IMG/VR virus record: IMGVR_UViG_3300042923_001647
Span: 1 to 33,207 of that record
Direction: 5' to 3' (one strand)
DNA length: 33,207 bases
DNA from: a virus
Lineage: Duplodnaviria; Caudoviricetes
The translations under genes were made by a program, and so were the position numbers. The notes beneath the pieces were generated by a model. That model ran no database searches and was not told the DNA's origin. It worked only from the letters and a program-made list of their open reading frames with translations. Below are positions 1 to 33,207 of the stretch, one piece after another (within the stretch, counting starts at the first letter, position 1; the number at the start of each line of letters is the position of its first letter).

Positions 1-127
1 GCAGTTACTTTATAATAAAATTTTTGTCCATAGTTTAAATTGTAGTCATTCCAATAAAGTGTACCTATTCCTTCTGCTATTTTATTGCTTGGAGCTGGAG
101 TAAAATTTTCAGTAGTTGCCCTATAAA
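1..127. repeat. Terminal direct repeat, copy 1 (assembly overlap of a circular contig)
   Basis: 1-127 (gcagttactt...gttgccctataaa) is identical to 33081-33207. 127 is a common assembler k-mer length. Confidence 0.97.
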
Positions 128-3100
128 TATTAAAGGTTGTGCCTTCAAGAAGCATACTGCTAGCATCGTAGTCCCATCTAAGCAAGGTTGTGTAATTTAT
201 ATTTGGTGTAGCTGTTAGATTCTTAGGTTCCTCCATAAGCTTAACAGTAAACATATGAGTAGATTGCGCAAAAGATGTTGTCCCATCTGGTGATATATAC
301 ATAGTAGTACTGTAGAGCTTATTACCATCAGTATCTACTGCTTCTATATACATTGAATTCTGAATTCCTTCTGGGTAATTTGTTGCATTAAAGCTTAAAC
401 CTTCTCCTGGCACAGTTTCTTCATCTATTAATACATTGTTTATATATAACTTACCTTTAAGACCTGCGGCTCCTCCATTGTTTATCCTCTGGTAGTTAAC
501 ATTTTTAGTTAAGACATTTATTAGGCTTCCGCTTGTTGGTGAATCTATTTGTAGAGTTGGACTATAGCTTATTGAGTTAGACTTTAAAATCTGCATGGAA
601 GCTATTTTGCTGTTTCCAGCTGTATCTGAGGCTACAAGTCGCAAGGTGTAAGTATTCTCTGCAAGACTTGATACATTCCAGCTTGAAAGTATGCCATTAC
701 TAACTGCATTTGTTCCAGAAGCTATTAATGTATAGGAGTTTGGATTTGTACCTACCCCGTATTCTAATCTCCAATCTTTAAAGTGTAAATCACTTACTGT
801 ACCTTTAACGTTTACAATTCCATTTATAGTTTGCTGATTTAAAGGATAGGATAATAAGCTTAGCGGCACTACTGTATCTTTATAATATTTAACACTGCCT
901 GCATATCCATCATTGCCCTGAGCATCTACTCCTCTTATAGAAATTGTATGTTCTCCTTCTGAAAGGGAGCTTGTATAGACAGTATGATAACTGTTTGCAC
1001 TAATATTTCCTGTATTAACCCATGGAGAACCATCTATTGAATATTGTACAGTTGCTAACCCAACATTATCATAAAGGTTTGTCCAATTAACATTAACAGA
1101 AGAAGAATTCGTCCATGAAGGCTTGTCTAGTGTTACTGTACTAGGTGTATTAGGTCTTGTTCTATCACCAGTTTGAATTGCTCCTTGAGATACAGCTTCT
1201 CTTGATGAGTTTCCATTATTATCAATAGCTTGCACCGAAACCGAGTAGCTTGAGCAGTCTGTTAAATTATCAAAGGTTACACTATTTACACTTGGTGCTA
1301 CACTAGCCTCCCTTTGATAAACTCCTGATTTAAAAAGCTTTACTTTATAAGAGTTTAGGCCGCTTGCCAAAGCAGCAGGTAAATCAGAAGTAGGACTCCA
1401 ACTTACTAAAGCTTTCCATGTATTTGCTTGATTGGTCCCTGGAGTATATGATATTGAAATTCCAGGGTTTGAGGGCGTGTTAGGACTTGTGCTGTCTGGC
1501 AGAGTTGGGGTAACACAATTATATCCAATATCACTTTGTTGTCCATATACATTATACGCTGTGACTCTAAAATAGTAGTTATGAGCATTACCATAGCCCC
1601 CATTTGATTTTGCATAGTTGTCAGCTGGATCATTTAATAGTTCTCTGCCGCCACCATCATAATGTAGAGTATATGACTCAAAGCTATGTGGCCAAATTTT
1701 TTTACCATTAGTTGTCCACCAAGTTGTATTACCTACATCATAATATTCATAGTAACTTCCATTAAATACAGCTACTTTATATCCTGCAGCTCCTTCAACT
1801 GCTGGCCAAGATAAGTCAACATAACCTGTACCTGTATTAGCACCACTTGAGTAAGCGCCATAATATAAGGTAGTTATTTTTGGTGAATATGTTACATTAA
1901 GACATGGCTTAATTGAGCCATCCGAAGAATAAAATCTTCTATATCTAGCTGTTTCCGCTGAATCCTTTATTACAAAGCCATAATTTGCTGCACTTCCTTT
2001 ATACCATTCAGAAACAAGTGAGGTTATATCCCAATAGTACCATCTAGGGCTACTAACTGCTACTTGTGATATTACATTCCCATCAAAGCCTGGAGCATTA
2101 TTCCATGTTATAGTACCTGATGACCATGACCCAAGTACTTTATGCAAATTAACATAAGCATTATTTCCATCTGCCACATTAGAATTTGCTCCATATGCAC
2201 TGAATGAAGCTGATACAATTATTCCACCTTCAATATCTGGAAGGCCAGGAAACATAATATATGAACGCACCTTTCCTGTAGTACTGTCATAGCCCGCTCT
2301 AATCTCACTATTATTTCTATAATTAGCAGTAGGATACTTACTTTGAACATATGCATCTGCAGTCACAGTATTTCCTGTAATCGTAGTTGTTGGATCAATG
2401 ATTACGGGATAAACTGTATTTTTATCTTTTAAAAATTTTTCATCTGCTGTTACAACTAATTTATATTTATCTATATTATTATCCTTATCTTTAATACTTT
2501 CAATTTTCATGAAAACATCATCTGAGAAATATCCTTTATCTGAACTGTCATACATGAATGGCTTTTCTATATATCCCTTTTCTTCCTCTGTTTCTTTATC
2601 TTTTAGTATAATTGACCCATTATCCTCCAACTGTGGAATCAAGTTTTTAAGTGTTAATATAAATTCAAAAGAATTTTTTCCTTTATAGGAATTAAGAATT
2701 ATTTCTTCCTTCAATCCACTGTTAGTTGGAGTGTATTTAACAACCGCATCTTCATATATGTTTTCATATTCTATGGAAGCTATACTATCCTCCTCAACAG
2801 TTTTTCCATCATCTAAAGTCTTCTTTTTCTTAACCTCTTTTAGTTTCTTCTCTTTTTTAACATCTTCTTTTACAGGTTTCATTTCAACCTTATATTTATC
2901 TAGTTCAACAGCTATAGGTGATTCACTATCTATATTTTCGTCTAGGGTTACATTTATCTTATTAGATTTATTTTTATATTTTGAACCACTTTTATCCGCC
3001 TTCTCTTCTTTAACTAAAGTATTGTCTATATCTTCAAACTTGTCCCCGTTTTTAAAGTGAATAGGCTTCTCATATACTGATGCAGTATATGTACCATCAC

Positions 3101-3281
3101 TATTCAAAAACACCTTACTATTTTCTGTTCTTTTTTCAACTAACTCTTTTACAACTGTTCTTTCCTTTTTAGGTTTATTTTCTTTAGCTGCTAGTACCTT
3201 AAAATTTGCCGGTATTAACGTAAACATAAATGTAAACGTCAAAGCAATTGGTATTATCTTTTGATATAGCCTGCCTCTCAT
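1..3281 (-). CDS. N-terminal part of giant WapA-like RHS/YD-repeat toxin RHS1 (signal peptide, DNRLRE-like domain, FN3/Ig-like repeats); continues across the junction to 28823, about 2512 aa in total
   Basis: ATG at 3281 after an SD-like GTGAGGA. Translation MRGRLYQKIIPIALTFTFMFTLIPANFKVLAAKENK..KELVEKRTENSKVFLNSDGTYT; WapA-like GYVDLSWPAVEGAAGYKVAVFNG..WTTNGKKIWP. Missing from the ORF track, consistent with being open to the window edge; in frame with 28823..32854 (3281+4258=7539 nt). Confidence 0.92.
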   Translation of the reverse strand, partial: MRGRLYQKIIPIALTFTFMFTLIPANFKVLAAKENKPKKERTVVKELVEKRTENSKVFLNSDGTYTASVYEKPIHFKNGDKFEDIDNTLVKEEKADKSGSKYKNKSNKINVTLDENIDSESPIAVELDKYKVEMKPVKEDVKKEKKLKEVKKKKTLDDGKTVEEDSIASIEYENIYEDAVVKYTPTNSGLKEEIILNSYKGKNSFEFILTLKNLIPQLEDNGSIILKDKETEEEKGYIEKPFMYDSSDKGYFSDDVFMKIESIKDKDNNIDKYKLVVTADEKFLKDKNTVYPVIIDPTTTITGNTVTADAYVQSKYPTANYRNNSEIRAGYDSTTGKVRSYIMFPGLPDIEGGIIVSASFSAYGANSNVADGNNAYVNLHKVLGSWSSGTITWNNAPGFDGNVISQVAVSSPRWYYWDITSLVSEWYKGSAANYGFVIKDSAETARYRRFYSSDGSIKPCLNVTYSPKITTLYYGAYSSGANTGTGYVDLSWPAVEGAAGYKVAVFNGSYYEYYDVGNTTWWTTNGKKIWPHSFESYTLHYDGGGRELLNDPADNYAKSNGGYGNAHNYYFRVTAYNVYGQQSDIGYNCVTPTLPDSTSPNTPSNPGISISYTPGTNQANTWKALVSWSPTSDLPAALASGLNSYKVKLFKSGVYQREASVAPSVNSVTFDNLTDCSSYSVSVQAIDNNGNSSREAVSQGAIQTGDRTRPNTPSTVTLDKPSWTNSSSVNVNWTNLYDNVGLATVQYSIDGSPWVNTGNISANSYHTVYTSSLSEGEHTISIRGVDAQGNDGYAGSVKYYKDTVVPLSLLSYPLNQQTINGIVNVKGTVSDLHFKDWRLEYGVGTNPNSYTLIASGTNAVSNGILSSWNVSSLAENTYTLRLVASDTAGNSKIASMQILKSNSISYSPTLQIDSPTSGSLINVLTKNVNYQRINNGGAAGLKGKLYINNVLIDEETVPGEGLSFNATNYPEGIQNSMYIEAVDTDGNKLYSTTMYISPDGTTSFAQSTHMFTVKLMEEPKNLTATPNINYTTLLRWDYDASSMLLEGTTFNIYRATTENFTPAPSNKIAEGIGTLYWNDYNLNYGQKFYYKVT

Positions 3282-3376
3282 TTTATTCCTCACCCTTATT
3301 TTATTTTAAATATATATCACCTTATAAACCTAAAGTCCCCATCTCCCTTCCTTGGCAATATATACCTAATAATAAA

Positions 3377-3405
3377 ATTATACAAAGCTATATCTTGATA
3401 ATCAA
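3377..3405 (-). promoter_or_regulatory. Sigma-A-like promoter for RHS1
   Basis: TTGATT-17 nt-TATAAT on the minus strand, about 95 nt upstream of the ATG at 3281. Confidence 0.55.
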
Positions 3406-3527: not shown

Positions 3528-3564
3528 AAAAAACACTTCTGAAATTACTTCAGAAGTATCTTTT
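3528..3564 (-). terminator. Intrinsic terminator after the RinA/ArpU-like gene
   Basis: Stem ACTTCTGAA (3535-3543) / TTCAGAAGT (3549-3557) with a minus-strand U tract. Confidence 0.7.
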
Positions 3565-3601: not shown

Positions 3602-4018
3602 TTACATATTCCCCAGTGCCTCAATCTTCTCCAGAGCTCTCTTCTCAATTCTCCAGCACTGCTGATAAGATCTATCTATCCTAAAAGAAATAGTATCCCA
3701 TTTATATCCCTTCATATATTTCATTTCTATTACTTCTCTTTCCTTTTCACCTAGTATGCTTAACACATTTTCAATCCTCACGATATCTCTTTCTTTGATT
3801 CTTTTTTCTCTTTCTAGTTTAGCTACTTTATCAGCTATGCTTATAGCTAAATACTCAGTTTGGCTGCTTATTCTATTTGTTTTACCAGTCTTCTCTTCAT
3901 AACTTATTGCAGATGGGCCTATGTTGTCTTCATCCTGAAGTTCTTCAATGTCTAGTTCAATTGCTCTAATCTCTGCCTTTATGTTTCTGTATTCCTTTAG
4001 TTTCTCTACTATTGTCAT
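3602..4018 (-). CDS. Phage late transcriptional activator, RinA/ArpU/DUF1492-like (sigma70 region-4-like HTH)
   Basis: 138 aa; LKEYR..coiled coil..LGEKEREVIEMKY..WDTIS..RSYQQCWRIEKRALEKI; last gene of the early operon; RBS GGGAGG. Confidence 0.85.
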   Translation of the reverse strand: MTIVEKLKEYRNIKAEIRAIELDIEELQDEDNIGPSAISYEEKTGKTNRISSQTEYLAISIADKVAKLEREKRIKERDIVRIENVLSILGEKEREVIEMKYMKGYKWDTISFRIDRSYQQCWRIEKRALEKIEALGNM

Positions 4019-4099: not shown

Positions 4100-4264
4100 C
4101 TATTTGACTTTCTCTTTATATGAATTTTCAAGCCTTATGGTTAAGTCTCCATTTACATTTTTAATGCCTATCTCAAAGAAATTAATATTACCTATTTTTT
4201 CAACTCCGTCTATAAGTTCATTGATTTTGCTATTTATCTTTGTTTTTATATCTTCCTTCTTCAT
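4100..4264 (-). CDS. Small 54-aa phage protein, possibly XtrA/YqaO- or DUF2292-like; below the ORF-track cutoff
   Basis: RBS GGGGGA, then MKKEDIKTKINSKINELIDGVEKIGNINFFEIGIKNVNGDLTIRLENSYKEKVK*; co-oriented with the operon. Confidence 0.7.
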   Translation of the reverse strand: MKKEDIKTKINSKINELIDGVEKIGNINFFEIGIKNVNGDLTIRLENSYKEKVK

Positions 4265-4309
4265 GCTGTTCCCCCAATATCTTTAAGATGTCATAATTAA
4301 AAATGATAG

Positions 4310-4576
4310 TTATTTTGTGATTAGGTTCTTCTGAAGCAAAGCTTCCTCTAAAGTGTCTACTTCAAGTATTGCGTTATCAACTCTATTATTTAGATTCATC
4401 AAGGAATTCCTGATATCCGTTAACTGCTCTACTGTTAGATCATCTTTTTTTATCGAAAGCTGTTTATTTATCTCCCACTGAGTACTTTTATAAGCCCCTT
4501 TTATATATCCTTGAAGCTGCATAACATAATTGCTATTATTATTTGCATGAATAACTTTTCTTTTTAGTTTGCTCAT
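4310..4576 (-). CDS. Hypothetical phage protein, coiled-coil
   Basis: 88 aa, RBS AAGGAGG, co-oriented with the early operon. Confidence 0.75.
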   Translation of the reverse strand: MSKLKRKVIHANNNSNYVMQLQGYIKGAYKSTQWEINKQLSIKKDDLTVEQLTDIRNSLMNLNNRVDNAILEVDTLEEALLQKNLITK

Positions 4577-4616: not shown

Positions 4617-5591
4617 TTAATCATCCCATCCAAGGAGCTTTCTTTCTATTTCACCGAAACTCATACTGCCATCACTGCCATCATAGCTACGCTGGGAATA
4701 GTTATTAAAAGTACTCTTCGTTCCATTGCTGTTATGAGTTATTGGTGTATTATTAAAGTTATAGCAGCCTTCAAGGATTTTTGTATAATGCTTCTCTTGG
4801 AGTATCCAATCAAAATCAGCCTTCCATCCCCTGTCATTATGACCAGTGAGAAACTTGCTGTTTTGTGCTGCTATAAAGATATCTCTTATGCTGTCTAAGC
4901 TTTTTAGTTTATTCCATGCAATTTCAATGGCTCTAAGGCGGCTACTAGGCTTTTTCATAACCTTAGGCAAAGAAATGCAATGGGAATTATAGAGCTCTAT
5001 AATTTCAGCATATGGTACTTTTTTTCTTTTATCATCTTCATTTTCTTTTTTAGTGGAGTCGGGCTCATCATGACCTTTCAGGTCATCCTTATTGTTTTCT
5101 GTTTCTTGTTTAATGTTTTTTGTTTCTTGTTTCTTGTTTATTGTTTCCCCTACCTGCTTAGTAGCCCCTTCTAAGCCCCTTAGAAGCCCCTCGAAAACCA
5201 CTTCGCAGTTGTATCCATGCTCCTTAAAAATGTTAAAAAGCCTGTCTATAAAATCCTTATTTCTTATTTGATGAAGCTCTTTATTCATGCACTTTTGCGT
5301 GTTGATACTATTATTGAAATTATATTTTACCCAGTTTAATATCATAATCTCTTTAGTCTCACTTGAGTACAATATCTTTTCATAGTCAACAAATCTCTTT
5401 AAGAGCTTCTCAACCGTTTCTCTGTTATATCCTGTTTCTGCTTCAATTAACCTTGTAGGTAAGCAATAAACCCCACATTGAGTTGATTTAGAATTAGTCA
5501 TAAGATATATATAAAAATATTTTTCTTCTGGAGTTAAATCCATTACAAAAGTATCCTGCCAGAATGATATTTCAAGTTGTCTATAAGCCAT
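4617..5591 (-). CDS. Phage replication initiator / replisome organizer (DnaD-like, lambda-O-analogous)
   Basis: N-terminal FWQD..LTPEEKYFYIYLMTN..GVY wHTH, low-complexity linker, C-terminal GWKADFDWIL and FNNYSQRSYD tail typical of Firmicutes phage Rep proteins. Confidence 0.85.
   Translation of the reverse strand: MAYRQLEISFWQDTFVMDLTPEEKYFYIYLMTNSKSTQCGVYCLPTRLIEAETGYNRETVEKLLKRFVDYEKILYSSETKEIMILNWVKYNFNNSINTQKCMNKELHQIRNKDFIDRLFNIFKEHGYNCEVVFEGLLRGLEGATKQVGETINKKQETKNIKQETENNKDDLKGHDEPDSTKKENEDDKRKKVPYAEIIELYNSHCISLPKVMKKPSSRLRAIEIAWNKLKSLDSIRDIFIAAQNSKFLTGHNDRGWKADFDWILQEKHYTKILEGCYNFNNTPITHNSNGTKSTFNNYSQRSYDGSDGSMSFGEIERKLLGWDD
5090..5191. repeat. Putative replication origin inside rep: iterons plus AT-rich strand-skewed tract
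   Basis: AGCCCCT at 5163, 5174 and 5185 (11-bp period), next to repeated TGTTTCT/TGTTT units at about 5092-5147. Confidence 0.6.
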
Positions 5592-5660: not shown

Positions 5661-6368
5661 CTAAGATATTATTTGAATATTTTCTATCTCAACCAGCATA
5701 TCTTCAAGATATTCTTTTACTCTGCCCATGGCATCATTTCTCCATGCTCCACCATCTGCTTCATACAATGCCGCTTGTGGACCACTCTGCATTCTAAATA
5801 TAAACTTAGATTCTGGCTGCCTTATTTCAGGGAAGGTTCTATATGGTGCCAGCGATACTGGATTAGGCACTTTCACATCATTAACCTTGGCTACGCCAGT
5901 CTTAATGGTTACAGCTTGGCTAATACCATCATCACCAACTTCTTTAACTGCTTTATCCTGTATACAGCCAGTTACCTTTAGAAGGATATCCTTGTCCTCG
6001 TTTTGAACAAAGCTTGATTGAAGCATTATATTAAAGCTTTCTGTATCCACAAATCTATTGAAATAGATATTATTAGGAGTAAAAGCTTCGCAGATCATAT
6101 AACATTCTCTTTCGGCATCGCTTCTAAGCTCTGAATATAACGCTACTTTCGTAGGGCTTATAACATGGACTAAAAGCTTTGAAAACTTATCATCTATTCC
6201 TGACTTTATGTAATCTATAAGTGCTGTTAATGTAGTTGTTTTTAGTGCTGCAGGTTCTGGCATCTTTACATGATTAAGCTGCTTAGTTGAATACTGCTGC
6301 CCTTCTATCTCTAATACCTTTATTTGTCCTAAGTTAACTAAATACTCTAAAGCTTCTCTTTCTATCAT
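5661..6368 (-). CDS. Conserved phage early protein (YfdQ/DUF2303-like)
   Basis: 235 aa; PNPVSLAPYRTFPEI.QPESKFIFRM..ALYEADGGAW motif seen in Firmicutes prophage early regions, paired with the next gene. Confidence 0.65.
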   Translation of the reverse strand: MIEREALEYLVNLGQIKVLEIEGQQYSTKQLNHVKMPEPAALKTTTLTALIDYIKSGIDDKFSKLLVHVISPTKVALYSELRSDAERECYMICEAFTPNNIYFNRFVDTESFNIMLQSSFVQNEDKDILLKVTGCIQDKAVKEVGDDGISQAVTIKTGVAKVNDVKVPNPVSLAPYRTFPEIRQPESKFIFRMQSGPQAALYEADGGAWRNDAMGRVKEYLEDMLVEIENIQIIS

Positions 6369-6388
6369 TTTTACATTCCTCCAAATTT

Positions 6389-6769
6389 TTATTTACTGTT
6401 TGCCATTTTTAAATCAATAACATTTTCACCCTTAGGTTCTGGATCATCAATCTCCATTTCTATTTGTCCTGGTATGTTGCTGCCTATCTCAGCCGCTACA
6501 ATCTTTCCTGTAGATAAGTCTTTGTCTATCATTATGTTTGCTTGAGTTGGTAAGAATGGAGCTAGTGTTGTCTTAGCTTGAATGTCTATTTCTGCTACAG
6601 ATCTTTTCTGATTAGGTTTAAAACTTAATGTTAGTGTAAGCTTTCTTACTCTCTTAGCATCTGTATTAGGATCATAGATATTGTTCACCACCTTTTCTAT
6701 TTCAGTATTGATTTGTTCTGCCAATGCTCCTCCTGCAAATGTCTCAAGGTTAATCATCTTCTCCATCAC
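6389..6769 (-). CDS. Conserved phage early protein (often auto-annotated 'replication terminator protein')
   Basis: INLETFAGGALAE..NIYDPNTDAKRVRKLTLTLSFKP motif; strong RBS. Confidence 0.7.
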   Translation of the reverse strand: MMEKMINLETFAGGALAEQINTEIEKVVNNIYDPNTDAKRVRKLTLTLSFKPNQKRSVAEIDIQAKTTLAPFLPTQANIMIDKDLSTGKIVAAEIGSNIPGQIEMEIDDPEPKGENVIDLKMANSK

Positions 6770-6791
6770 TATTCCTCCCTAAATATATTTT

Positions 6792-7031
6792 TTAACTTCT
6801 TAAAAAGTCTTGTATCTCTTTCCTTTGCAATATTGGACAGAAGCCTTCAATATCATTAAGCAGCCTCTCGGCCTTTACAGTTCTTTTCATATAGTAAATA
6901 ACTTCTCTCTTAAGCTGCTCAACCTCAATGGCTTTATCTAGCTCCTGACTTTTATTTATTGTTCTAACATCTGATGTACCAAAGCTCTCAATGTGTTCAT
7001 GTAGCTCTCTTCTTAAGTTTTCTATATCCAT
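6792..7031 (-). CDS. Spo0E-family aspartyl-phosphate phosphatase with a C-terminal extension
   Basis: IENLRRELH...SQELDKAI contains the SQELD signature in a short two-helix protein. Confidence 0.8.
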   Translation of the reverse strand: MDIENLRRELHEHIESFGTSDVRTINKSQELDKAIEVEQLKREVIYYMKRTVKAERLLNDIEGFCPILQRKEIQDFLRS

Positions 7032-7090
7032 AGTCTTATTTCTCCTTAATTCTTTCTAAGTTAATCCAATATGCGTAAATATTTATATAT

Positions 7091-7801
7091 TTATATATTT
7101 ACTACAACCAGAGATAACTGATCATCTGCTTTACCTTCTGAAATTTTATCTGATATACTGAATTTTTCACCATCCTCATAACCTTGATTATAAATTTCGG
7201 TATATCCTTGAAACTCAGTTTGCGTATTTATTGACCTTTCAAATTTTATATTGCTGTGAGCTTCTACAACTTCAGCATCTTTAACAAGAACAAGTCCCCA
7301 TTGTTGATTTTTCTTTTTCTGCTCTTCAAACTTTTCTCTTAAGCCTTTAATAAAGCCAAGAGCATAATCATTCTCAAGTCCTTTCGTGCTGTAACCATGT
7401 TTTGAATATTGATATTTTAGTCTTTTAACAGAACTATTGATGCAGTCAACGGCGTATTCTAAAACTATATTGCATACCGTTACATCTTCTTCTCTTCCAA
7501 AGAAAGCTATTGTATGAGTTCTTCTTGATTTAAAATAGTGATAACATGCAAAGTTATCTGCAATAAGCCTTGATAATTTAGCTTTCCACTTTGCTTTAGT
7601 GAAGGAAACTGAGCTAACTTTCTCTTTAATTGATCTATTATAGGATTTAAACTCTTTTACTTCTTTAAGTGATAACTTGTGCTTTGCTAAAAGTTCCTGT
7701 GCCTTTAACAAAGATAGTTGGGCTTCATTTTCATTACTGCTTTCGCTTAAAGCCAGTAGCTTCTGTACTTTAACGATTATTTTTTCATCCATTCTTCTCA
7801 C
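7091..7801 (-). CDS. DUF2786-domain protein
   Basis: N-terminal KVQKLLALSESSNENEAQLSLLKAQELLAKHKL; C-terminal YNQGYEDG. Likely start at the second Met. Confidence 0.85.
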   Translation of the reverse strand: MRRMDEKIIVKVQKLLALSESSNENEAQLSLLKAQELLAKHKLSLKEVKEFKSYNRSIKEKVSSVSFTKAKWKAKLSRLIADNFACYHYFKSRRTHTIAFFGREEDVTVCNIVLEYAVDCINSSVKRLKYQYSKHGYSTKGLENDYALGFIKGLREKFEEQKKKNQQWGLVLVKDAEVVEAHSNIKFERSINTQTEFQGYTEIYNQGYEDGEKFSISDKISEGKADDQLSLVVVNI

Positions 7802-7807
7802 CTCAAA

Positions 7808-8005
7808 TTAATCAAACTTCAAAGTATCTTCATGGCACGATGGACATTCAGTTATTAATCCACCTTTACCATCGAATTGTACATATCCGCCATCCATGGA
7901 AATTTGAAAAACAGCCTGTCCCATTGTTGTCTTACCCAAATCAAAGCTGCATTCTTTATTTTCACAATATACTGTAGTAATATAATCTGGAAAGCACTCT
8001 CTCAA
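7808..8005 (-). CDS. Small Cys-rich, zinc-ribbon-like protein
   Basis: CENKEC...CPSC; TTG start with RBS GGAGGG. Confidence 0.65.
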   Translation of the reverse strand: MRECFPDYITTVYCENKECSFDLGKTTMGQAVFQISMDGGYVQFDGKGGLITECPSCHEDTLKFD

Positions 8006-8022
8006 TTTAATCCCTCCATTAA

Positions 8023-8118
8023 TTAAAAGTTCTTAGCGCAATATTTTAAGTACTTTTTGCTATCAATTTTAGTATCAGTTTTAGGTTCCTTTATAATTAG
8101 AATTTTCTTTTTTTTCAT
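8023..8118 (-). CDS. 31-aa basic peptide
   Basis: RBS GAAAGGAG, then MKKKKILIIKEPKTDTKIDSKKYLKYCAKNF*. Confidence 0.5.
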   Translation of the reverse strand: MKKKKILIIKEPKTDTKIDSKKYLKYCAKNF

Positions 8119-8228
8119 TGTACTTAGACTCCTTTCATGCTATTATGGAGCTAGAGTATTTTCCTAGGTACTCTAACAAAGCATAACGCTGTTTTCAAAA
8201 TAAGCCCTCTGCAAAGGGTTTATTTTTT
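8118..8228 (+). ncRNA. Candidate ~75-nt antisense small RNA with its promoter and terminator
   Basis: TTGTAC-17-TATTAT with TGn extended -10 (8118-8146), hairpin AGAGTA..TACTCT, terminator TAAGCCCT-ctgca-AGGGTTTA-TTTTTT. Confidence 0.5.
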
Positions 8229-8288
8229 CACTCAATTTTATCTCTGCTGAAAATCTCTCTAGCGAATATTCCATTTAATCACCCTTTC

Positions 8289-9615: not shown

Positions 9616-9692
9616 CACTTTTTTTGTAATAATTAGTATTTTTATTGCGTTGGTGTAATATACAAAATAAAATATACATAAGGGGTGATTTA

Positions 9693-12048: not shown

Positions 12049-12059
12049 GTGATATGAAG

Positions 12060-13352: not shown

Positions 13353-13355
13353 AAT

Positions 13356-24446: not shown

Positions 24447-24935
24447 ATTTGTAAAAATATAGAACTCCCAATTGAATTTTAAGCTATATTTTCACCAGAA
24501 ATAGTGAGCTTTCATACTCCCAATTATTATAGTAGCAAAAGAAATCCACTATTTTCTCCAATGCATCCATACCCTTAACACCTTATATCATAGGGCCTCA
24601 GAGCATTCTATTTAACAGTATTTTTAAAACTATTCACACTTCAAGACAAAATAAATTTTAATAATTAAGTACTTTCAAACACAGCTAAAATAGCTCTGAG
24701 TTTAACAAAAATACATATCTTTTTACCAGCAAAAGTGTTAAAATTACTGCCTTTCTGAGTTACCTTCAATATACAATGTGTGAAACTCATAATTACCCTA
24801 TAAGTATAGTAAATTCAATGGTTTAGTTAATACACGCATTTTGAGTTTAACATTACCTCAATATGTGTAATTGAGCCATAATATTAGTAATCTTAAATTA
24901 AATATACATCATAAACAATGATTATATACTAAATC

Positions 24936-24988: not shown

Positions 24989-25372
24989 TTAATAGTTCAT
25001 ATCATAAATAACAACTTTATTAGCTAATACCTTAACAAATGCCCTTTCTGGGAATGGATCTCCCTCAACTATTAAAGATATAATACTATCACCTAATCTT
25101 ATTACTGTATATCCATCTTCATCAACAGACTCCAGACACCCTATAAAATATAAAGTGTCTTTTTCCATCCCTAAGGTGCATGCTTTTTCATCAATCTGTT
25201 TCATACTGTCATTCCAATTAAGTGTATCTGGTATTTCGAATTCTACAAAATATTCCACATCAAGACTTGGTTTGTCTCCTTCCCATATTGCTTGGGCATT
25301 ACCAAACTCTGTAGTAAAGGTAACCAAGTTCTTTGACTCTATGCTTTACACTTTTTTTATACTAATTTTCAT
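24989..25372 (-). pseudogene. Orphan immunity gene 2 with premature in-frame TAA
   Basis: RBS AGGAGG, ATG 25372, MKISIKKV*SIESKNLVTFTTEFG..., in frame with track ORF 24989..25327. Confidence 0.7.
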
Positions 25373-25392
25373 ATACACATTTCCTCCTACAA

Positions 25393-26440
25393 CTATTTTA
25401 TCCGTTGTAATAGATTTGTTACTGTCATAATATCATTCACTGGATCATAAATAAATGTTTCTTCATACTAGTGGAATTTTGTAGTACCCATACTTTTCAT
25501 TTCAGACTGTGTGAAGGCAAATACTCTTAGTACTATCAGCAAAAAAATCCTATTAGAATCAACCATTTCAGTCCTTGGGTGGATATTTGTGGTATTACGA
25601 CCTAAGTAATCAACCCATCTTTGAGTAACTTGACTTTATATCACTCGGTGCTTTTACTTTAGTTACATCTATAACCTTTGTATTAATGCATGGAGTATTA
25701 ACCTTAGCAGCATTACCCGCAACCTTTGAAGTGATCTTCACTTTAGACAATTTCATCTCAGTTAATTTATCTTCTGCTTTGGCAGTCACTATGTCTTTTA
25801 CTGTATTTGCTACAACAGCCGCTATTACTATTATATCTATTGAAATTAACATTTTGGGGTTCATTTCATTAATCTTCCAACTTCATTTGCAGTCTTAGTA
25901 AGCTTGCTTTCTCGTACAAAATCCATTTCAAGCTCTTTTGATGTACCACCAACATCATCAGTTACTGAAAATGCTCTATACCCTGTAGGATCTATATAGT
26001 TTATAGAATTATTCGATGTATAGCTGTAAAGATGCTGTATCCATGATTCATATGGGTTTCCTGCATAAGTATCCTCAGTCAAGAACCTACCTGTATTAGG
26101 ATTGTAAAATCTTGCGTTCATATAGTATAGGTTCGACGAAACATCATGCACTGCTCCTGTAAATTTGATATCATTCTTAAATAGACTGTCTCCACTATCC
26201 TTTATTTTACCAAATTCATCATAATCATAGCCTTTAACTAAGCTTCCGTCAGGCTTTATTATACTTGTTACGCTTCCTCTAATATCATAATTATAGAAGA
26301 AATACATGTTAGCATAATTGCCATCAAATCTCTTGGAAGCCACTATTGTACCAGATGGATCAAGAATATGCTCCTGGCCTTTATTATTGTTGATGTCAGC
26401 AGTGTATAGAAAGCTGTCGCCATCATAATAATACTTTGTT
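25393..26440 (-). pseudogene. Orphan RHS cassette 2: core repeat plus degenerate toxin tip with several frameshifts and stops
   Basis: 25955-26436 copies 29358-29839. Frameshift near 25870; relic peptides NIHPRTEMVDSNRIF and EMKSMGTTKFH*YEETFIYDPVND..LQRIK. Confidence 0.8.
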
Positions 26441-26470
26441 TACAATTATCTAATTTGCTTTGAACCGTCT

Positions 26471-26509
26471 AAAAAAAGTAGCACCATTTCTTACTATTGC
26501 TACTTTTTT
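26471..26509. terminator. Bidirectional terminator after immunity gene 26539..27210
   Basis: AAAAAAGTAGCA / TGCTACTTTTTT. Confidence 0.7.
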
Positions 26510-26538
26510 ATCATTTAAGTTAAAAATACCTAATACTA

Positions 26539-27210
26539 TTAAGATTTCTTTTTAGATTTTATATGAATTTTATTACTCTTAAAGTTACCTTCTTCATATT
26601 CACTAAGTTGTTTATACCTATAATATACTTCACCTATAAAAGCCGATCCTAATATCATTAATATTGATGCAGCTATATATATAACAGAATTTGTAGATAA
26701 AAAATTGTTTATTATACTCGATATACAAACCCCCAATATTATCATACTAGATATGCTAGCTGAATATGGCACAACAAAAAATGCTTCTAGCTTACTTATT
26801 TTTCGCTTCTCACGACTTTTTAAATATTTATAAATTTTTGTTCTTGCTATATATAGAGAAATATTACACAATGCTGCAAATACTACAACAAATGCTAAAC
26901 TAAATATTATATACTGATAAAAGCTTTCTATATTCTCATAAAGTTCAGTAAGCAGTATAAGATATGAAAATAATGGTAATATCCCCAAAGCACCTAAAGG
27001 TATATGTTGAAACTTCTTAGAATATATCCACAGAAGATATCCTATTAACAAAGCTATATACCCTATAATACTACTTAACATAATTAACGATTCATTATTT
27101 TTAAGTAATGGTAGAAAGCAGATTAATGCATTAGTTGGAATAGCAATAAAAAGAGCAAACTTTTTCTGTTCCGTGTTTTTTAATGCACGTTTGTACTGAA
27201 ATTTATCCAT
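26539..27210 (-). CDS. Multi-TM putative immunity protein of orphan cassette 1
   Basis: About 6 hydrophobic segments; immediately follows a hydrophobic toxin tip; RBS AAGGGAG. Confidence 0.75.
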   Translation of the reverse strand: MDKFQYKRALKNTEQKKFALFIAIPTNALICFLPLLKNNESLIMLSSIIGYIALLIGYLLWIYSKKFQHIPLGALGILPLFSYLILLTELYENIESFYQYIIFSLAFVVVFAALCNISLYIARTKIYKYLKSREKRKISKLEAFFVVPYSASISSMIILGVCISSIINNFLSTNSVIYIAASILMILGSAFIGEVYYRYKQLSEYEEGNFKSNKIHIKSKKKS

Positions 27211-27225
27211 TTATACAACTCTCCC

Positions 27226-28119
27226 TTACTGATATATATTCTGTTCTAATCCAAACGCAGGAGCAAGCGCATTTTTTATTGAATTTCCTGCAAAATAATC
27301 TACTCCAATCCCAACAGCAATACTAGTCATTGCTACAACGGCTGGTGTGGCAGCTACTAAGATTCCTACTGTTATTGCAACTCCTATCACTCCTACAGTT
27401 ATTGCTGATGATATTGCTCCAGTAACAAGGCCTGCTACAGCATCCCTACCAACTTCAGCTCCTCTCTTACCATCAAAAAGATAGCTAAAACCTGCAGAGA
27501 ATAATGCTGATGTAGCACCTCCTTTTATGATTGCTTTTGCTGTTATCTTTGCAAAATCACCAATAGAATGTCTCATTATTGAGCTTACCAGCCCTGCTTC
27601 TGAACCACAAGCTTTACTTATACGTTGAGTTGTAATTTTTCCAGTTTTTAAATTTGTATATTGATAGGACTATCCCTTTGTGTTTGTCTCTACTACCTTA
27701 ACAGATTTATCATCAAATAACTGACCAGTTAATGTTTGGACATCCCCATATCCTGATATAAGTGTTTGCTTAACTGTTTTTACTATTGGATCCTTTTTTT
27801 CTATTCTTCGGTATTTATTTTGTTTCCACTGAATTAACTTTTCTTCTTCATCTCTATAATCATCCACACTAGTCCCAGCAGCCTCATCAGTTACTGAAAA
27901 TGCTCTATGCCCTGTTGGATCAACATAATTTATAGGATTATTAGATGTATAGCTGTAAAGATGCTGTGTCCATGATTCATATGGGTTTCCTGCATAAGTA
28001 TCCTTTGTTAAGGATCTTCCTGTATTAGGATTGTAGAATCTGGTATTCATGTAGTAAAGGTTTGATGAAGCGTCATGCACTGCTCCTGTGAATTTGGTAT
28101 CATTCTTAAATATCTGCAA
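27226..28119 (-). pseudogene. Orphan RHS cassette 1: core repeat plus hydrophobic toxin tip, split by one in-frame TAG
   Basis: 27865-28112 copies 29339-29586. Track ORFs 27670..28119 and 27226..27576 are in the same frame, separated only by TAG at 27672-27670. Confidence 0.85.
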
Positions 28120-28345
28120 ACTTCACGTCTTAGCAGATTTATCCGAACTCTAAATAATTGTAGCTATTCACTAAAATATAATTAGATCCACTCACATTAT
28201 AGAGCAAAAAATCATACACGATATAATTTTTTACTTATCGACTTGAAAAATATAGAGAAGATTCATAAATCCAAGCATGCTTATCGCTTAAATTTATGAA
28301 TCGCTGTCTTAAACACTTGGCTTTAGTTAATAAAGTAATCTTTTT

Positions 28346-28816
28346 CTATAAATTGTCTCCAAGTGATATAACTCCAATAATAATTGCTGAAACAATTATT
28401 ATAAAAATTAATATCATAAACATTGATAGTCTTGCCATAGCTATCTGCTCTTCATTTTTGCTTTTAAGCATTAATTTTAATCTCATCACAAAAAAATAAC
28501 TTATAGGTATAATGCTACAACCGAGAATAATTAACTGCACATTCTTGTTGATTAATGATAATGTTCTCAAAATAACAAATATAATAATTATTGTAATAGA
28601 CATAAAACCAGACACGTAGAGATACATTGGCGTTATAGGATTTTCCCTTTTTTTATCTTTTATAAACTCATAAATAAAGATAAAAAATAGTATTAAAACC
28701 AATAATAAACTTATATATTTAGGTATATTCTTACTTAGACTAATTATAGCCATAATCATAACTATTAATGCCAGTAATTTACTTTCTATTTTTTTTACAA
28801 CCATTATCTTGTGCAC
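28346..28816 (-). CDS. Membrane protein, putative cognate immunity for RHS1
   Basis: About 5 hydrophobic segments; starts 7 nt after the RHS1 stop. Confidence 0.75.
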   Translation of the reverse strand: MHKIMVVKKIESKLLALIVMIMAIISLSKNIPKYISLLLVLILFFIFIYEFIKDKKRENPITPMYLYVSGFMSITIIIIFVILRTLSLINKNVQLIILGCSIIPISYFFVMRLKLMLKSKNEEQIAMARLSMFMILIFIIIVSAIIIGVISLGDNL

Positions 28817-28822: not shown

Positions 28823-31800
28823 CTATCGTTTCTTTTGGTCGAAAAACACGTCATTTACCATGTCAGCTCCCAATCCAATTCCAAACGCAATAATAACTCC
28901 AGTTATTACAACTGGTGTCGATGCTGTAGCTGTCATAGCACCAATAGCAATACCTAATGACATAGCTGCGATATTAACTCCCGTTCTTAACAGAGGATGT
29001 TTATATTGTGTAAAATTCTCTATTGTTTCTGGTATTGTGAGTACTGCACTAGCTATACCTATTTTACCAAGCATCTTTAATGATTTAGCTCCAACTTTAG
29101 GAACAATAGTTTCAGCTGTAACGCCCTTACCAAACTTAAATATAAATGACCTTTTGGCATTTCTGTTTGGTAAATTATCTGCCAACTCACCTAAAGTAAC
29201 ATGTTCAGGAACCTTCTCGGTAAAATATTCGCCAAGCTTATCAGCAGAAGTATCTCTCAGTCCAGATATTAAAGCCACTTTAGTTGCCCTCTTTACTTTT
29301 ACTGCTATGTTATTTTTATCATCTGCATTTGTATCATGCACACTAGTCCCAGCAGCCTCATCAGTTACTGAAAATGCTCTATGCCCTGTTGGATCAACAT
29401 AATTTATAGGATTATTCGATGTATAGCTATAAAGATGCTGTGTCCATGATTCATATGGGTTCCCTGCATAAGTATCTTGAGTCAAGAACCTACCTGTATT
29501 AGGATTGTAGAATCTTGCGTTCATATAGTATAGGTTCGATGAAACATCATGCACTGCTCCTGTGAATTTGGTATCATTCTTAAATAGACTGTCTCCACTA
29601 TCCTTTGTTTTACCAAATTCATCATAATCATAGCCCTTAACTAAGCTGCCGTCAGGCTTTATTATGCTTGTTACACTTCCTCTAATATCATAATTATAGA
29701 AGAAGTACATGTTAGCATAATTACCATCAAATCTCTTGGAAGCCACTATTGTACCAGATGGATCAAGAATATGCTCCTGGCCTTTATTATTGTTCATGTC
29801 AGCAGTGTATAGAAGGCTGTCGCCATCATAATAATACTTAGTTGCTACTCCATCTTCTATTTGTTTTATTCTTTGACCATCACCATTATAGGTGTTTTCT
29901 ATGTTCTTAGTGCTGCTTTCATTGGTTATGGTTAAGTTTATAAGTCTATCAGCTTTGTCATACCCGAAGGTTGTAGTTTTTGAACCTGTTACTTCGCTTG
30001 TCTGATTACCGTTTAAATCATAGGCAAAAGTTGAATCTACTGTACCATTTTTCTTTGTCTCTTGTAGGCTGTTAAACTGATTATAATTATAGCTGAAGTT
30101 ATCGCTTCCTTCGCTCATAGTGAGTCTATTTCCTACCTTGTCGTAGGTATAGCTTGTAGTTTTATTCTCACTGCTGTTTACTACTGATAGAAGTCTTCCT
30201 ATCTCATCATAATTATAAGCTTTATTTATAGTCTTTTCACTGTCGTAGTTTGTATAGGCAGCTTCATTTTTTATAAAACCTCTCTTGTCATATTCTAATG
30301 TATATTCTTCCTTCTTTGTGCTGTTATTGTCAAGATAGGCAATACTGTTTGTAAATCCTGCACTATTGTAGCCGTATTTTGTCCTTATAAAGTCAGTTCC
30401 ACCTGTGTCAAAGCTTCTATAACTGTTTGTATAATCTATCTTCCCTGAAGGAGTATAGCTGTAGTCACTTACTGCTTTTCCGTTTAGAAGTACGCTTTGA
30501 AGTCTTCCTAAGGTATCATAGTTATATTCGATACTCTTTGTGCTGCTTCCTTCTATATAAGAAACTTTTGTTCTGTTTCCGCTACCATCGTATTGATAAT
30601 CAACAGCACTACCTTCTTGTACATATTGTATAATTCTGTCTAGCTTATCATAGCCATAGGTGGTGTCTATAGCTTTTCCGTCTTTAACATCCCTCATGGA
30701 AACCCTATTGCCATTATCGTCATAGCCAAAGCTGGTGTAGTTATTGCTGTCATAGGTTACCTTTTCTAGTCTGTCTAAATTGTCATAATCGTAGGATATA
30801 TAGTTTCCATCAGGCTTGATAAGCTTTTTTAGATTTCCTTTAGGGTCATACTCATACCTTGTAACTTGCCTTTCGCTGTCACCTGTAGTTCCTTCCTTAA
30901 CTTCCTTTACCTTTCTTCCAAGGGAGTCAAAATAAGTTAGCGTTTCTCTGTTTAAGGCATCTATACTCTTGTTGTAAACTATGCTTCCTTCTTTTATGTC
31001 ATATTGATAGCTTGTGAAAATTTCTTGTCCGTTTACAGTGTTAGCTGTCTTTTTGAGTCTTCCTATTTTATCATATTGGTAGCTTGATATATTTCCCTCT
31101 CCATCTTTTGATGTCAGTTTGTTTCCCATCAAGTCAAAGGTGAATTCGTTAACTATATTTAAGTTTGAAGGGTCTGTGATTGTTTTAACTCCCTGATTTA
31201 ATTCATTGTATACTGCCTTTGTTTCTCTGCCTTCTGCATCCTTAGACTTAACCATATTTCCTGCTTGGTCATATTCATAAGTTACAAAGGTTCCTCCGCC
31301 CTCTTCCTTTATAACTCTTCCAGCTGCATCATAGTAAGTCTTTGTTATTCTGCCCTCAGCGTCTTTGGATGTAACAATAACATTATTATCTGTTCCATAT
31401 CCATAGCTTGTGGTGTGAGTTTTGCTGTCAGCATCTGTTATGCTTTTTATTCTATCTATCGAATCGTAGCTGTATACTGTTGTAAAGCCTCTTCTATTCC
31501 TAGCGTGAGTTAAATTACTGTTTAAATCATATTCGTTTTCTGTATATTTTCCATCAGCATATATTATCTTTTTCTGTCTTCCCAATAGATCATAAACAGT
31601 TTCAATTGTTCTTCCTAAAGCATCCTTTACCTTTGTTGGGTTATTTTGAGCATCAAAGGCTAAGACTTCTGTTACTTTTCCTTGCGGCTCTGTAATTTTT
31701 ACAAGTCTTCCCTTACTGTCATATTCATAGCTGGTAGTGTTTCCAAAGCTGTCTGTAGTTGAGGTTAAATTACCTAAGGCATCGTAAGTGCTGCTATTGA

Positions 31801-33207
31801 TTTTACTCTCAGCATCTTTCACTGTCTTAACATTACCTTTGCTGTCATAGGTATATTCTGTTACTGCAAAGCTTCCTGAGCCGATTGGACTGCTTATTTG
31901 TCCTACCTTATTAAAGCTGTTGTAATTTTTATATTCTGTTATATTTCCTAGAGGATCCTTGACAGTTAAAATATTACCATTAGAATCGTAGGTATAGTAG
32001 TAATTTAACTCTTTATTTACTCCACCTACGTTATTCATATAATACATTCTAGTTACATTATAATTCTCGTCAACCTCATAGCTGATGCTATTTCCTAAAG
32101 GGTCTATCTTTTTAGTTATGTTTCCACTGTCATTATAATTAAATATTGAAGTCTTTCCTCTATTGCTCGTTATTGAAGTGCTTAGTGATCCATAGCTTAT
32201 TGTATAAAATTCATTTATAGGGTCTGTTACTTTTGTCAGCTTTTCATTTGTATAGGCAATTGCAGTTGTATTTTTCTTTGGGTCTATGATGCTTTGGATT
32301 TTTCCATTGCTGTCATAAACAAACTCTTCTGAGTATTCAACATTATTTTCAATTAAAGTGTACATTTTCTTCAGTCTATCTGTGGTGTCATCGTAAAGAT
32401 AGGTGAAGCTTCTTCCGGCAGGATCCGTTACTGTTTTAAGTCTATCCTTTGTATCGTAATCTAATATGCTTGTATTTCCATAACTATCTTTAACCTGAGT
32501 CACATTTCCTCTTGCATTATAGGAAAGCTCAAGGAAGTTTCCATTAGGCTCTGTAAATTTGGTAAGCTTCATAGTCTTGTCAAAGATATATTCTATGTTG
32601 TCTTTTCTTTTTATTTTGTAACTGCCATCTGCACTGTTAAAGTTTAAGGACATATATAAGCCTTTTGCGGCGCTATAGCTTCCATCAGCATTCTTAGTAA
32701 ATCTATGAATACTTCCATCTCCGTCTTTTAGTATTATACCTATTTCACTGCCTACTGCATCGTATTCCTTTAATAGATTTGTATTGAAGCTGAAATCAAA
32801 GCCATAGCCTAAAGGAGTTTTAGTTGTAGATTGACTGTTATAGCTTCTTCTCATTGTCTGAATTAAAGCAGAACCTGGAAAAACAAAGTCTACTGTTTGA
32901 TAAGCTAAATTTCCAGTACTTAAATTTATATACCCTTGACCACTTCCAGTTCTAAACTGAGAAAATCCCCAGTAATTTTGAAGTCCTAATCTTTTTTCAA
33001 GTTCATTTTTAGAAACTACTGTAGCATTAGTTGTATTTGAAGTTATACTTTCTCTCCTTATTCCATTGATATTTTTTACGGCAGTTACTTTATAATAAAA
33101 TTTTTGTCCATAGTTTAAATTGTAGTCATTCCAATAAAGTGTACCTATTCCTTCTGCTATTTTATTGCTTGGAGCTGGAGTAAAATTTTCAGTAGTTGCC
33201 CTATAAA
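28823..33207 (-). CDS. C-terminal part of RHS1: YD repeats, RHS core, hydrophobic (putative pore-forming) tip
   Basis: Frame is open from the window end (..YKVTAVKNING..LGLQNYWG..GYINLSTGNL..MRRSYNS); core ARFYNPNTGRFLTQD..NNPINYVDPTGH; tip rich in Ala/Gly/Ile helices. Confidence 0.93.
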   Translation of the reverse strand, partial: YRATTENFTPAPSNKIAEGIGTLYWNDYNLNYGQKFYYKVTAVKNINGIRRESITSNTTNATVVSKNELEKRLGLQNYWGFSQFRTGSGQGYINLSTGNLAYQTVDFVFPGSALIQTMRRSYNSQSTTKTPLGYGFDFSFNTNLLKEYDAVGSEIGIILKDGDGSIHRFTKNADGSYSAAKGLYMSLNFNSADGSYKIKRKDNIEYIFDKTMKLTKFTEPNGNFLELSYNARGNVTQVKDSYGNTSILDYDTKDRLKTVTDPAGRSFTYLYDDTTDRLKKMYTLIENNVEYSEEFVYDSNGKIQSIIDPKKNTTAIAYTNEKLTKVTDPINEFYTISYGSLSTSITSNRGKTSIFNYNDSGNITKKIDPLGNSISYEVDENYNVTRMYYMNNVGGVNKELNYYYTYDSNGNILTVKDPLGNITEYKNYNSFNKVGQISSPIGSGSFAVTEYTYDSKGNVKTVKDAESKINSSTYDALGNLTSTTDSFGNTTSYEYDSKGRLVKITEPQGKVTEVLAFDAQNNPTKVKDALGRTIETVYDLLGRQKKIIYADGKYTENEYDLNSNLTHARNRRGFTTVYSYDSIDRIKSITDADSKTHTTSYGYGTDNNVIVTSKDAEGRITKTYYDAAGRVIKEEGGGTFVTYEYDQAGNMVKSKDAEGRETKAVYNELNQGVKTITDPSNLNIVNEFTFDLMGNKLTSKDGEGNISSYQYDKIGRLKKTANTVNGQEIFTSYQYDIKEGSIVYNKSIDALNRETLTYFDSLGRKVKEVKEGTTGDSERQVTRYEYDPKGNLKKLIKPDGNYISYDYDNLDRLEKVTYDSNNYTSFGYDDNGNRVSMRDVKDGKAIDTTYGYDKLDRIIQYVQEGSAVDYQYDGSGNRTKVSYIEGSSTKSIEYNYDTLGRLQSVLLNGKAVSDYSYTPSGKIDYTNSYRSFDTGGTDFIRTKYGYNSAGFTNSIAYLDNNSTKKEEYTLEYDKRGFIKNEAAYTNYDSEKTINKAYNYDEIGRLLSVVNSSENKTTSYTYDKVGNRLTMSEGSDNFSYNYNQFNSLQETKKNGTVDSTFAYDLNGNQTSEVTGSKTTTFGYDKADRLINLTITNESSTKNIENTYNGDGQRIKQIEDGVATKYYYDGDSLLYTADMNNNKGQEHILDPSGTIVASKRFDGNYANMYFFYNYDIRGSVTSIIKPDGSLVKGYDYDEFGKTKDSGDSLFKNDTKFTGAVHDVSSNLYYMNARFYNPNTGRFLTQDTYAGNPYESWTQHLYSYTSNNPINYVDPTGHRAFSVTDEAAGTSVHDTNADDKNNIAVKVKRATKVALISGLRDTSADKLGEYFTEKVPEHVTLGELADNLPNRNAKRSFIFKFGKGVTAETIVPKVGAKSLKMLGKIGIASAVLTIPETIENFTQYKHPLLRTGVNIAAMSLGIAIGAMTATASTPVVITGVIIAFGIGLGADMVNDVFFDQKKR
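33081..33207. repeat. Terminal direct repeat, copy 2
   Basis: Identical to 1-127. Confidence 0.97.

Follow-up and report, generated by a model that had tools for sequence, protein, structure and literature searches.

The 33,207-nt window, by which we mean the whole stretch of DNA analysed, closes into a 33,080-bp circle that on balance is best read as a clostridial temperate phage derivative without a late module, which has kept the switch, Rep, the integrase with attP and a predicted cos, and which would be a single proto-hitcher lineage packaged by a helper phage. The observations themselves are the gene content, an order that a full phage shares, missing late genes, an attP junction and a cos-like sequence. 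Excision and replication on induction are likely, as is packaging only by a co-resident cos phage. Bases 1-127 of the window are identical to 33081-33207, the RHS1 frame (2,516 aa) runs stop-free through the join, and 13300-33207 is covered by contigs at an even depth of ~11-13x, all of which agree with the closed unit described in the first-pass annotation. These contigs come from the single run containing this DNA, which is possibly the source of the window and thus not independent, and they omit rare forms. Among the datasets listed with this DNA there is no RNA run.

Integrase, attP-like inverted repeat, CI/Cro, Rep with repeats and late activator had been placed in temperate-phage order, and profile searches and repeat analysis recovered each of them. 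The minus strand carries a RinA/ArpU-like late activator at 3602..4018 (phrog_36, E 5e-23; TIGR01636 weak and below cut-off), two small early genes at 4100..4576, the 54-aa one being phrog_23283, the phage replication initiator Rep at 4617..5591 (phrog_6251, E 8e-50; DnaD-like), further early genes at 5661..9188 (phrog_1029, phrog_997 "replication terminator", Spo0E-like, DUF2786/DUF7168, a 65-aa ORF, a 186-aa HTH protein and a 62-aa ORF) and a Cro-like HTH protein at 9335..9556. Three 11-nt repeats (5157-5200) and A-rich repeats (5089-5146) within the Rep gene are likely the origin. Divergent from Cro, on the plus strand, profile matches identify a CI-like repressor with an S24 peptidase domain (9645..10505). 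Its Ala-Gly at 122-123, Ser154 and Lys194 are all present and, with the roles that we take them to have by LexA/CI precedent, point together with the S24 domain to self-cleavage. A large serine recombinase (LSR; 14616..16205, plus strand) is followed by a 22-nt attP-like inverted repeat (16216..16269; 86%), and one contig of the run crosses attP. No tRNA or Rfam match was found in the window.

An AT-rich stretch (28% GC) at 10636..14408, which does not figure in the first-pass annotation, holds four defence-like cargo genes encoding a 470-aa protein, a SIR2-like protein of 432 aa, a 146-aa ORF and a SocA/Panacea-like protein of 195 aa. No named defence system matched this stretch, PADLOC giving weak SIR2 and PDC-M19A matches only, and an Atlas search named no family for the 470-aa protein.

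RHS toxin/immunity DNA makes up 19,460 bp or 59% of the circle, in keeping with an earlier estimate of about half, and the two full genes alone make up 43%. RHS1, on the minus strand, is cut by the window ends into a 5' part at 1..3293 (DNRLRE/CBM96 and fn3 domains, predicted Sec signal peptide) and a 3' part at 28823..33080 (DUF6531, YD repeats, RHS core and a hydrophobic C-terminal predicted toxin). The C-terminal tip matched no known family, with no more than weak pointers to LXG/Gly-zipper clusters from the Atlas; ORF analysis places an immunity-like membrane protein for RHS1 at 28346..28816 (minus). RHS2 (17411..23953, minus; 2,180 aa) has a signal-peptide-like start, DNRLRE, CBM, ChW and RHS core, and ends in a Tox-HNH-EHHH nuclease domain; the predicted YxiF-family immunity protein lies at 16914..17393 (minus; PF24715, E 3e-28). 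Both signal peptides were judged by eye. Two orphan RHS-core/C-terminus cassettes, decayed and interrupted by in-frame stops, occupy 24989..28816 (minus) along with further immunity-like ORFs. By sequence, RHS1 and RHS2 have the marks of WapA-type Rhs proteins (YD repeats, RHS core, variable C-terminus and downstream immunity gene), and the two giant toxin genes are predicted to be antibacterial.

The idea that these weapons are amplified from a late promoter found no support: a terminator-like hairpin at 3535..3557 (reported on the plus strand, with a T run on the minus strand too; two such hairpins were found versus 0.2 expected) separates RinA from RHS1, and the RHS genes stand at normal moron positions. 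A sigma-A-like promoter match at 3377..3405 (minus; 10/12 positions) lies upstream of RHS1, in a region where such matches are at chance level (6 found versus 5.4 expected).

Profile searches covered 29 main non-overlapping ORFs out of 83 ORFs of at least 45 aa. Among these 29, no match was found to the terminase, portal, capsid, tail and lysis families of a functional temperate phage, to primase, or to the relaxase, coupling protein and T4SS of an ICE/IME or conjugative plasmid, which confirms the absences first noted for relaxase, T4SS, primase and capsid. The same applies to packaging, head, tail and lysis genes at large, as none of 119 late-region ORFs from three related phages matched the whole circle by tblastn, and neither a TerS nor an HNH profile matched the circle below E 0.1. 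As a positive control, virion genes were recognised in the full relatives G001 and G404. In the N-terminus of RHS1, residues 47-469 match phrog_37549 (E 6e-16), a family labelled "virion structural protein"; we rejected it as a virion gene, the match overlapping a DNRLRE region common to chromosomal WapA proteins.

The closest relative is a full temperate phage of 40,162 bp (IMG/VR record G001), which encodes terminases, portal, capsid, sheath, tape measure, baseplate, holin and endolysin. It shares with the circle the LSR (89% identical), the 54-aa ORF (98%), the 62-aa ORF (84%), the HTH protein (80%), RinA (66%) and Rep (37%), in the same gene order and with both att arms matching, and DNA likeness stops just past the attP-like repeat. 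CI matches in the C-terminal 176 aa only (63%). The common genes are full length with a dN/dS of 0.01-0.12 in 5/5 pairs, which mostly reflects time as a working phage. This homology and synteny of the early module support the earlier reading of a domesticated or derived prophage. A second relative of the same LSR clade, the 55-kb provirus G404 (CheckV 100%), has a complete virion set and, directly after its endolysin, an RHS gene 44% identical to RHS2; in both G404 and G001, cargo lies between RinA and the packaging genes, which is RHS1's position in the circle. Intact clostridial prophages thus carry WapA-type RHS genes as ordinary cargo, and at the same right end (G404). When Rep, RinA, the RHS1 N-terminus and a 58% LSR relative served as queries in viral scans, distant loci or none were returned.

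A cos-like packaging site, on which the first-pass annotation was silent, lies at 24353..24448 on the minus (late) strand and consists of a C run, ACCG, a GC-rich core and a G run, with neither of its usual neighbours (HNH, TerS) and with a diverged right half. By analogy with phiS63, whose mapped 3' cos occupies the equivalent position in a matching layout (PMC3442830, in the part available), the cut is predicted at about 24404-24394. With a profile of 101 positions built from 16 TerS-upstream regions, a test that is partly circular because these regions were chosen by a pattern written after the window's site was known (17/25 matched, one duplicate dropped), the site aligns to model positions 4-99 and scores 16.2 bits (E 3e-4). 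None of 100 shuffled controls exceeded 5.6 bits, 1.45 Mb of other loci gave two matches of at least 8 bits (one of 8.1 and one of 11.1, the latter being a cos-like phage site as well), and 6/9 held-out phage loci scored 8.6-16.7 bits. In score the site resembles genuine cos regions of the HM T/phiCD506 class. It does not fit G001's class: a profile from 39 cos regions of that terminase class, which recovers held-out phages at 43, 35, 20 and 6 bits, found no match in the window. Among the genomic motif matches listed, 9 of the 15 tested non-rRNA ones lie 0.3-0.5 kb before a same-strand TerL, a count from which a multi-copy stretch recognised by eye as 16S rRNA and seven GC-rich or unclear sites were excluded beforehand. 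For the phiCD506 class, a cos is not given in the available portion of PMC5127024. A blastn search of phages with 24200-24990 returned short chance matches only; a retained Xer-like site at 24760-24880 was considered and dropped for want of blastn support.

Clostridium and Clostridioides phages with an HM T/phiCD506 terminase module measure 31.4-38.7 kb, a range that includes the circle. The exact cos core was found beside a terminase in none of 119 viral stretches (56/64 parts scanned), and the exact-core matches within them were judged to be chance.

We propose that the circle is normally integrated in a host gene and would be freed by RecA-triggered CI cleavage or by sporulation. Rep would then amplify it using host helicase functions, since a helicase loader is missing behind Rep in the full relative G001 as well. 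Cutting cos and filling a normal head, which a circle of 33 kb allows, would fall to a helper terminase of the HM T/phiCD506 class. The two WapA-type genes may be expressed as morons and their products Sec-exported to poison non-immune neighbours, which would repay the keeping of the element.

The element may instead be a cryptic dead end of the skin type that is excised, for instance in the mother cell during sporulation, and is kept for its toxins but never transferred, its cos being a relic; we consider this possible but do not favour it. Distant LSR relatives (about 40-50%) directly adjoin sigK (L028, L033) or other host genes, clostridia are known to have excising elements of this kind (PMC3442830, as far as available), and an LSR element of the same clade (L470) has WapA directly divergent from its recombinase. 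The orphan cassettes are decayed, and orphan cos-like sites also occur in remnants without RHS (G710), so cos retention need not mean selection. Against this, no contig of the run has an attL/attR loose end at the att site, versus ~11x for the circle, which is more in line with an amplified or packaged circle than with rare excision, and cos was kept although nothing is left of HNH, TerS and the small tyrosine recombinase. No integrated copy was found in the genome and metagenome recombinase loci searched, and neither an attB nor an excision factor was seen.

A rather doubtful elaboration of the helper-packaged reading is that of a natural cosmid, in which the virion module was swapped for WapA arrays that serve both as contact weapons and as filler to unit length for the helper's full-size head; cos would be under selection, and the element would hitch-hike without capsid-remodelling genes.

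The first-pass annotation had set an undescribed class of large clostridial satellite beside a domesticated prophage, and had counted a one-off deletion in a full prophage against its view. The satellite idea has gained a concrete packaging route that it formerly lacked, from the cos-like site and the helper-like size, but the class itself was not substantiated. The virion-less RHS layout recurred in none of 24 viral RHS loci, 60 upstream regions (fetched for 94 WapA places that lie in 65 genomes, out of 335 scored; 58/60 had no match to the phage query set), nine short loci from 43 other genomes, or 80 metagenome and two genome recombinase loci with RHS nearby. In 400 Clostridia genomes phrog_23283 had three weak matches, none in a similar element. 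The closest relative is a full phage, as the deletion view would have it; cos kept without its neighbours and the helper-like size nevertheless indicate more than a plain one-step deletion. The circle is unlikely to belong to a recurring and established family of large, WapA-carrying cos satellites in clostridia, even though cos is cleanly kept between two cargo blocks, the size is helper-like, the early genes are intact and the CI DNA-binding domain is unlike that of G001. An SOS-type CI and RinA are kept, as in a phage, and no capsid-remodelling, Ccm-like or interference gene was recognised among the scanned ORFs. The circle has been observed once, and a satellite family is not shown.

It is very unlikely that the circle is a plasmid-like episome held outside the chromosome by the phage Rep: the attP form alone is visible in the run and similar Rep and phrog_1029 genes occur on records labelled plasmids, but neither a partition family nor a plasmid Rep family turned up in the profile search of the 29 ORFs, attP and the recombinase are intact, and the Cro-side operon that contains Rep should be repressed by CI. 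An assembly artefact, in which a collapsed repeat or chimera dropped the late genes, is barely credible: the ends overlap by precisely 127 nt, a k-mer length common in assemblers, and contigs of the run are broken at the three 300-nt RHS-core repeats, but depth is even, the breaks fall within the orphan RHS array and not at the expected late-gene place, an 8,008-nt contig (18062-26069) runs from RHS2 through cos into the orphan array, another of 10,805 nt covers the early region, closure near 4136-4153, deduced from lengths, fits two contigs, and the lengths are compatible with one contig through RHS1 and the join.

Among known systems, clostridial LSR temperate phages (G001, Clostridium phage HM T KU517658, Terrisporobacter phage TPELB_ph1, phiS63) share with the circle the recombinase clade, the CI/Cro, Rep, RinA order, the attP layout (G001) and the cos layout (HM T, phiS63), but encode the HNH, terminase, head, tail and lysis genes that it lacks. 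Intact prophages with WapA/RHS morons (G404; L143, L144, L449) likewise have an LSR at one end and WapA with immunity at the other, facing att; they differ in their complete virion set, PBSX-like (phrog_2) terminase and one RHS, versus two RHS loci in the circle. WapA-type toxins thus travel on clostridial temperate phages. We found no publication that deals with clostridial prophages carrying WapA/RHS genes or with virion-less elements of this sort, in a partial coverage of the literature that is not proof of absence.

Skin-like elements intervening in sporulation genes (skinBs, skinCd, gin, yin) have reportedly been found; they share a serine recombinase of the clade beside sigK, form a circle on excision and can miss virion genes, whereas the circle keeps a cos-like site and a full early module. 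Gram-positive PICIs have a primase/helicase-type replication module and a repressor relieved by a helper protein, not by SOS self-cleavage; the circle has a phrog_6251/DnaD-like Rep and no primase match. The cos-type PICI SaPIbov5, as portrayed in the available part of PMC5052747, has in common with the circle an integrase, divergent regulators, an origin of its own, a phage-type cos and the need for a helper terminase (the last two predicted for the circle), but is about 14 kb with a capsid-shrinking Ccm protein that redirects capsid size, while the circle has 33,080 bp, a phage-type Rep, an S24 CI and RinA, and no capsid-like match. Gram-positive WapA/Rhs contact toxins, in the excerpts available of PMC12704120 and PMC5576092, show the same signal peptide, YD repeats, RHS core, variable C-terminal toxin, adjacent immunity gene and orphan modules; the phage-borne MuF toxins of PMC5576092 differ in being carried by intact phages.

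The closest parallel to the preferred reading, the helper-packaged phage derivative, is the reductive model, in which defective prophages, with DLP12 and Rac named, act as proto-hitchers; the available part of PMC11389934 states as open whether such prophages become helper-mobilised hitchers. With an intact switch, origin and attP, an isolated cos, a helper-like size and host-benefiting cargo, the circle is a clean, testable candidate for this step. As judged from sequence it would qualify, having an early module syntenic to a full phage and a packaging signal retained. Like the prophages described there, it has lost structural genes and kept packaging signal, switch and replication; it differs from them in that no remnants of the cos-flanking genes are left, the lost length has been replaced by toxin cargo and the element is a closed circle.

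The window's ends share an exact 127-nt overlap, which closes the element into a circle of 33,080 bp. The minus strand carries Cro, an early gene set, a Rep that contains internal repeats and a RinA-like activator (3602-4018); the plus strand carries an S24-domain CI and a large serine recombinase (LSR), the latter followed by a 22-nt inverted repeat. Past RinA come the WapA-type toxin gene RHS1 (2,516 aa; 28823-33080 and 1-3293, minus strand), whose reading frame spans the circle join, an immunity-like gene, two decayed orphan cassettes and RHS2 (2,180 aa; 17411-23953, minus strand), which has a terminal Tox-HNH-EHHH domain and a YxiF gene alongside. The RHS block makes up 59% of the circle and the phage-derived part only 12.7 kb. 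AT-rich repeated motifs at 9260-9334 and 9558-9634, flanking Cro and in the CI-Cro gap, are possible operators.

No gene for packaging, head or tail, lysis, a primase or conjugation emerged when 29 of the 83 ORFs were compared with Pfam, PHROGs and NCBIfam. The sole such match, of the RHS1 N-terminus to a family labelled "virion structural protein", was rejected as a virion gene. The same profile library readily detects late genes in relatives, and the 119 ORFs in the late regions of three related phages gave no match to the circle. The first-pass annotation, which described a closed circle without a recognisable virion module and with about half of its DNA devoted to RHS toxins and immunity, is thus borne out.

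The nearest relative found, G001 (40,162 bp), is a complete phage: it carries terminase, portal, capsid, sheath, baseplate and lysis genes. Identity is 89% for the recombinase, 80-98% for small early genes, 66% for RinA and 37% for Rep, and common DNA blocks are 80-85% identical; both att arms are also present in G001, and DNA likeness ends beyond them. Five common genes are full length with dN/dS of 0.01-0.12, values that mostly record their past as phage genes. CI resembles that of G001 in its C-terminal part only, which suggests from sequence that the two differ in immunity. More distant recombinases adjoin sigK, an FAD oxidoreductase or an ABC transporter gene (gene names by eye), a setting akin to that of clostridial intervening elements (PMC3442830).

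RHS2 relatives occur in 24 viral loci, two of which (L143 and L144) are records of one prophage, the intact provirus G404. Its RHS gene (44% identical) immediately follows holin and endolysin, and it has a full virion set and a recombinase of the window's clade at the opposite end; excision would give LSR-att-immunity-RHS, the same order as in the window. Three further loci (L145, L152 and L158) look similar by eye. WapA-type toxins are therefore normal phage cargo, as seen in G404, and in both G404 and G001 cargo lies in the interval that separates RinA from the packaging genes, the place of RHS1 in the window. A terminator-like hairpin lies downstream of RinA, and a sigma-A-like match lies upstream of RHS1, where promoter matches are at chance level. 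Because of the hairpin and the usual cargo positions, the RHS genes are likely morons rather than RinA-driven late genes; amplification of the weapons from the late promoter is not supported.

WapA is exported by Sec and acts on bacteria (PMC12704120, PMC5576092), and the same is predicted by analogy for the window's RHS proteins. The tips of RHS1 (28823-29380) and of the first orphan cassette are hydrophobic, rich in Gly/Ala and followed by membrane proteins, and are possibly membrane-acting toxins of a family without a name. Tandem related, apparently secreted proteins occupy the RinA-terminase interval of an intact Clostridium prophage (L173 13277-19000 and L174 1-1800, G404), and two intact prophages (L159, L160) have a 693-aa early-region protein and, close to the late activator, a segment that matches the RHS2 core.

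Between CI and the recombinase, four convergent AT-rich genes (10636-14408) encode a 470-aa protein of a widespread family without a name, a SIR2-like protein, a 146-aa ORF and a SocA/Panacea-like protein. This region, where G001 has different cargo, matched none of the named defense systems and is a candidate defense system.

A cos-like site that had gone unreported in the first reading lies on the late strand at 24353-24448, between the RHS1 and RHS2 loci. In order, it consists of a C run, the motif ACCG some 37 nt further along, a GC-rich core and, 42 nt later, a G run. It was not recovered by a profile derived from 39 regions of the terminase class to which G001 belongs. One built from 16 regions upstream of small terminases of the Clostridium phage HM T type, with a selection pattern composed when the window site was already known, matched nearly full length at 16.2 bits. 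The best of 100 shuffles reached 5.6 bits and 1.45 Mb of other loci gave two matches at 8 bits or more; held-out phage loci scored 8.6-16.7 bits in 6/9 and leave-one-out 5.5-21.7 bits in 15/16. Since the pattern postdates sight of the window, separate checks were made. The 3' cos of clostridial phage phiS63, mapped by experiment (PMC3442830), occupies a matching place, the pattern is matched in 26 of 351 genomes, and 9/15 non-rRNA sites tested have a large terminase on the same strand 0.3-0.5 kb downstream. HNH and TerS are absent from the window, broken frames included; therefore, either at least two events spared the cos-like site or its flanks decayed beyond recognition.

We lean toward a prophage that lost its late module and became a proto-hitcher, a concept described in PMC11389934. 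Such a circle would still excise and replicate, would be retained for its toxin and defense-like cargo, and could be packaged by a helper phage with matching cos. Packaging from cos requires near-unit genome length, as in lambda; clostridial phages with the HM T-type terminase module measure 31.4-38.7 kb and the circle 33.1 kb. A skin-like relic that can no longer transfer is a less probable reading.

An established satellite family is doubtful, as the surveyed loci held no second example. No like element was found among the 24 viral RHS loci, among 82 recombinase loci of metagenomic or genomic origin (the metagenome scan covered 27/64 parts and lacked the closest relatives), in 60 regions upstream of WapA (94 places, 65/335 genomes), or in another 43 genomes, which supplied 9 short loci. 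Of the 60 regions, 58 gave no match to the chosen phage query set, one is an intact prophage and one has, at a contig end, a recombinase divergent from WapA; four were shorter than 5 kb. Recurrence of a virion-less RHS layout was thus not found, and of the earlier proposals on origin, prophage derivation is favored by G001 while an undescribed satellite class is not. The divergent recombinase (L470, G271:C30, 7745-10389; window's clade, 48%) borders a fragment of an ABC substrate-binding gene and is directly divergent from the WapA start with no CI/Cro between, and the contig stops inside WapA. Four of six motif sites without an adjoining terminase look cos-like, with no RHS repeats nearby. 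One, at about 286-289 kb of G710:C1, follows a RinA-like gene 2.9 kb upstream, and its surroundings lack TerS, TerL and portal genes of the families tested; that genome contains no RHS repeats but does have a complete cos prophage, at 1.51 Mb.

That the circle is an episome is improbable. Even less credible is an assembly artefact, the misassembly envisaged earlier: in the one public run found with circle DNA, a soil metagenome that is possibly the window's own source, contigs span 13300-33207 at about 11-13x, long ones bridge attP and RHS2-cos-orphans, and their lengths are compatible with closure near 4140. One contig reads through attP and none shows a loose end marking attL or attR; integrated copies may still occur, as contigs omit rare forms.

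Among known systems, SaPIbov5 meets the length requirement by shrinking the head (PMC5052747). The circle would work as cos satellites do, on paper only, and it differs from PICIs in size and replication module, which places it outside that group.
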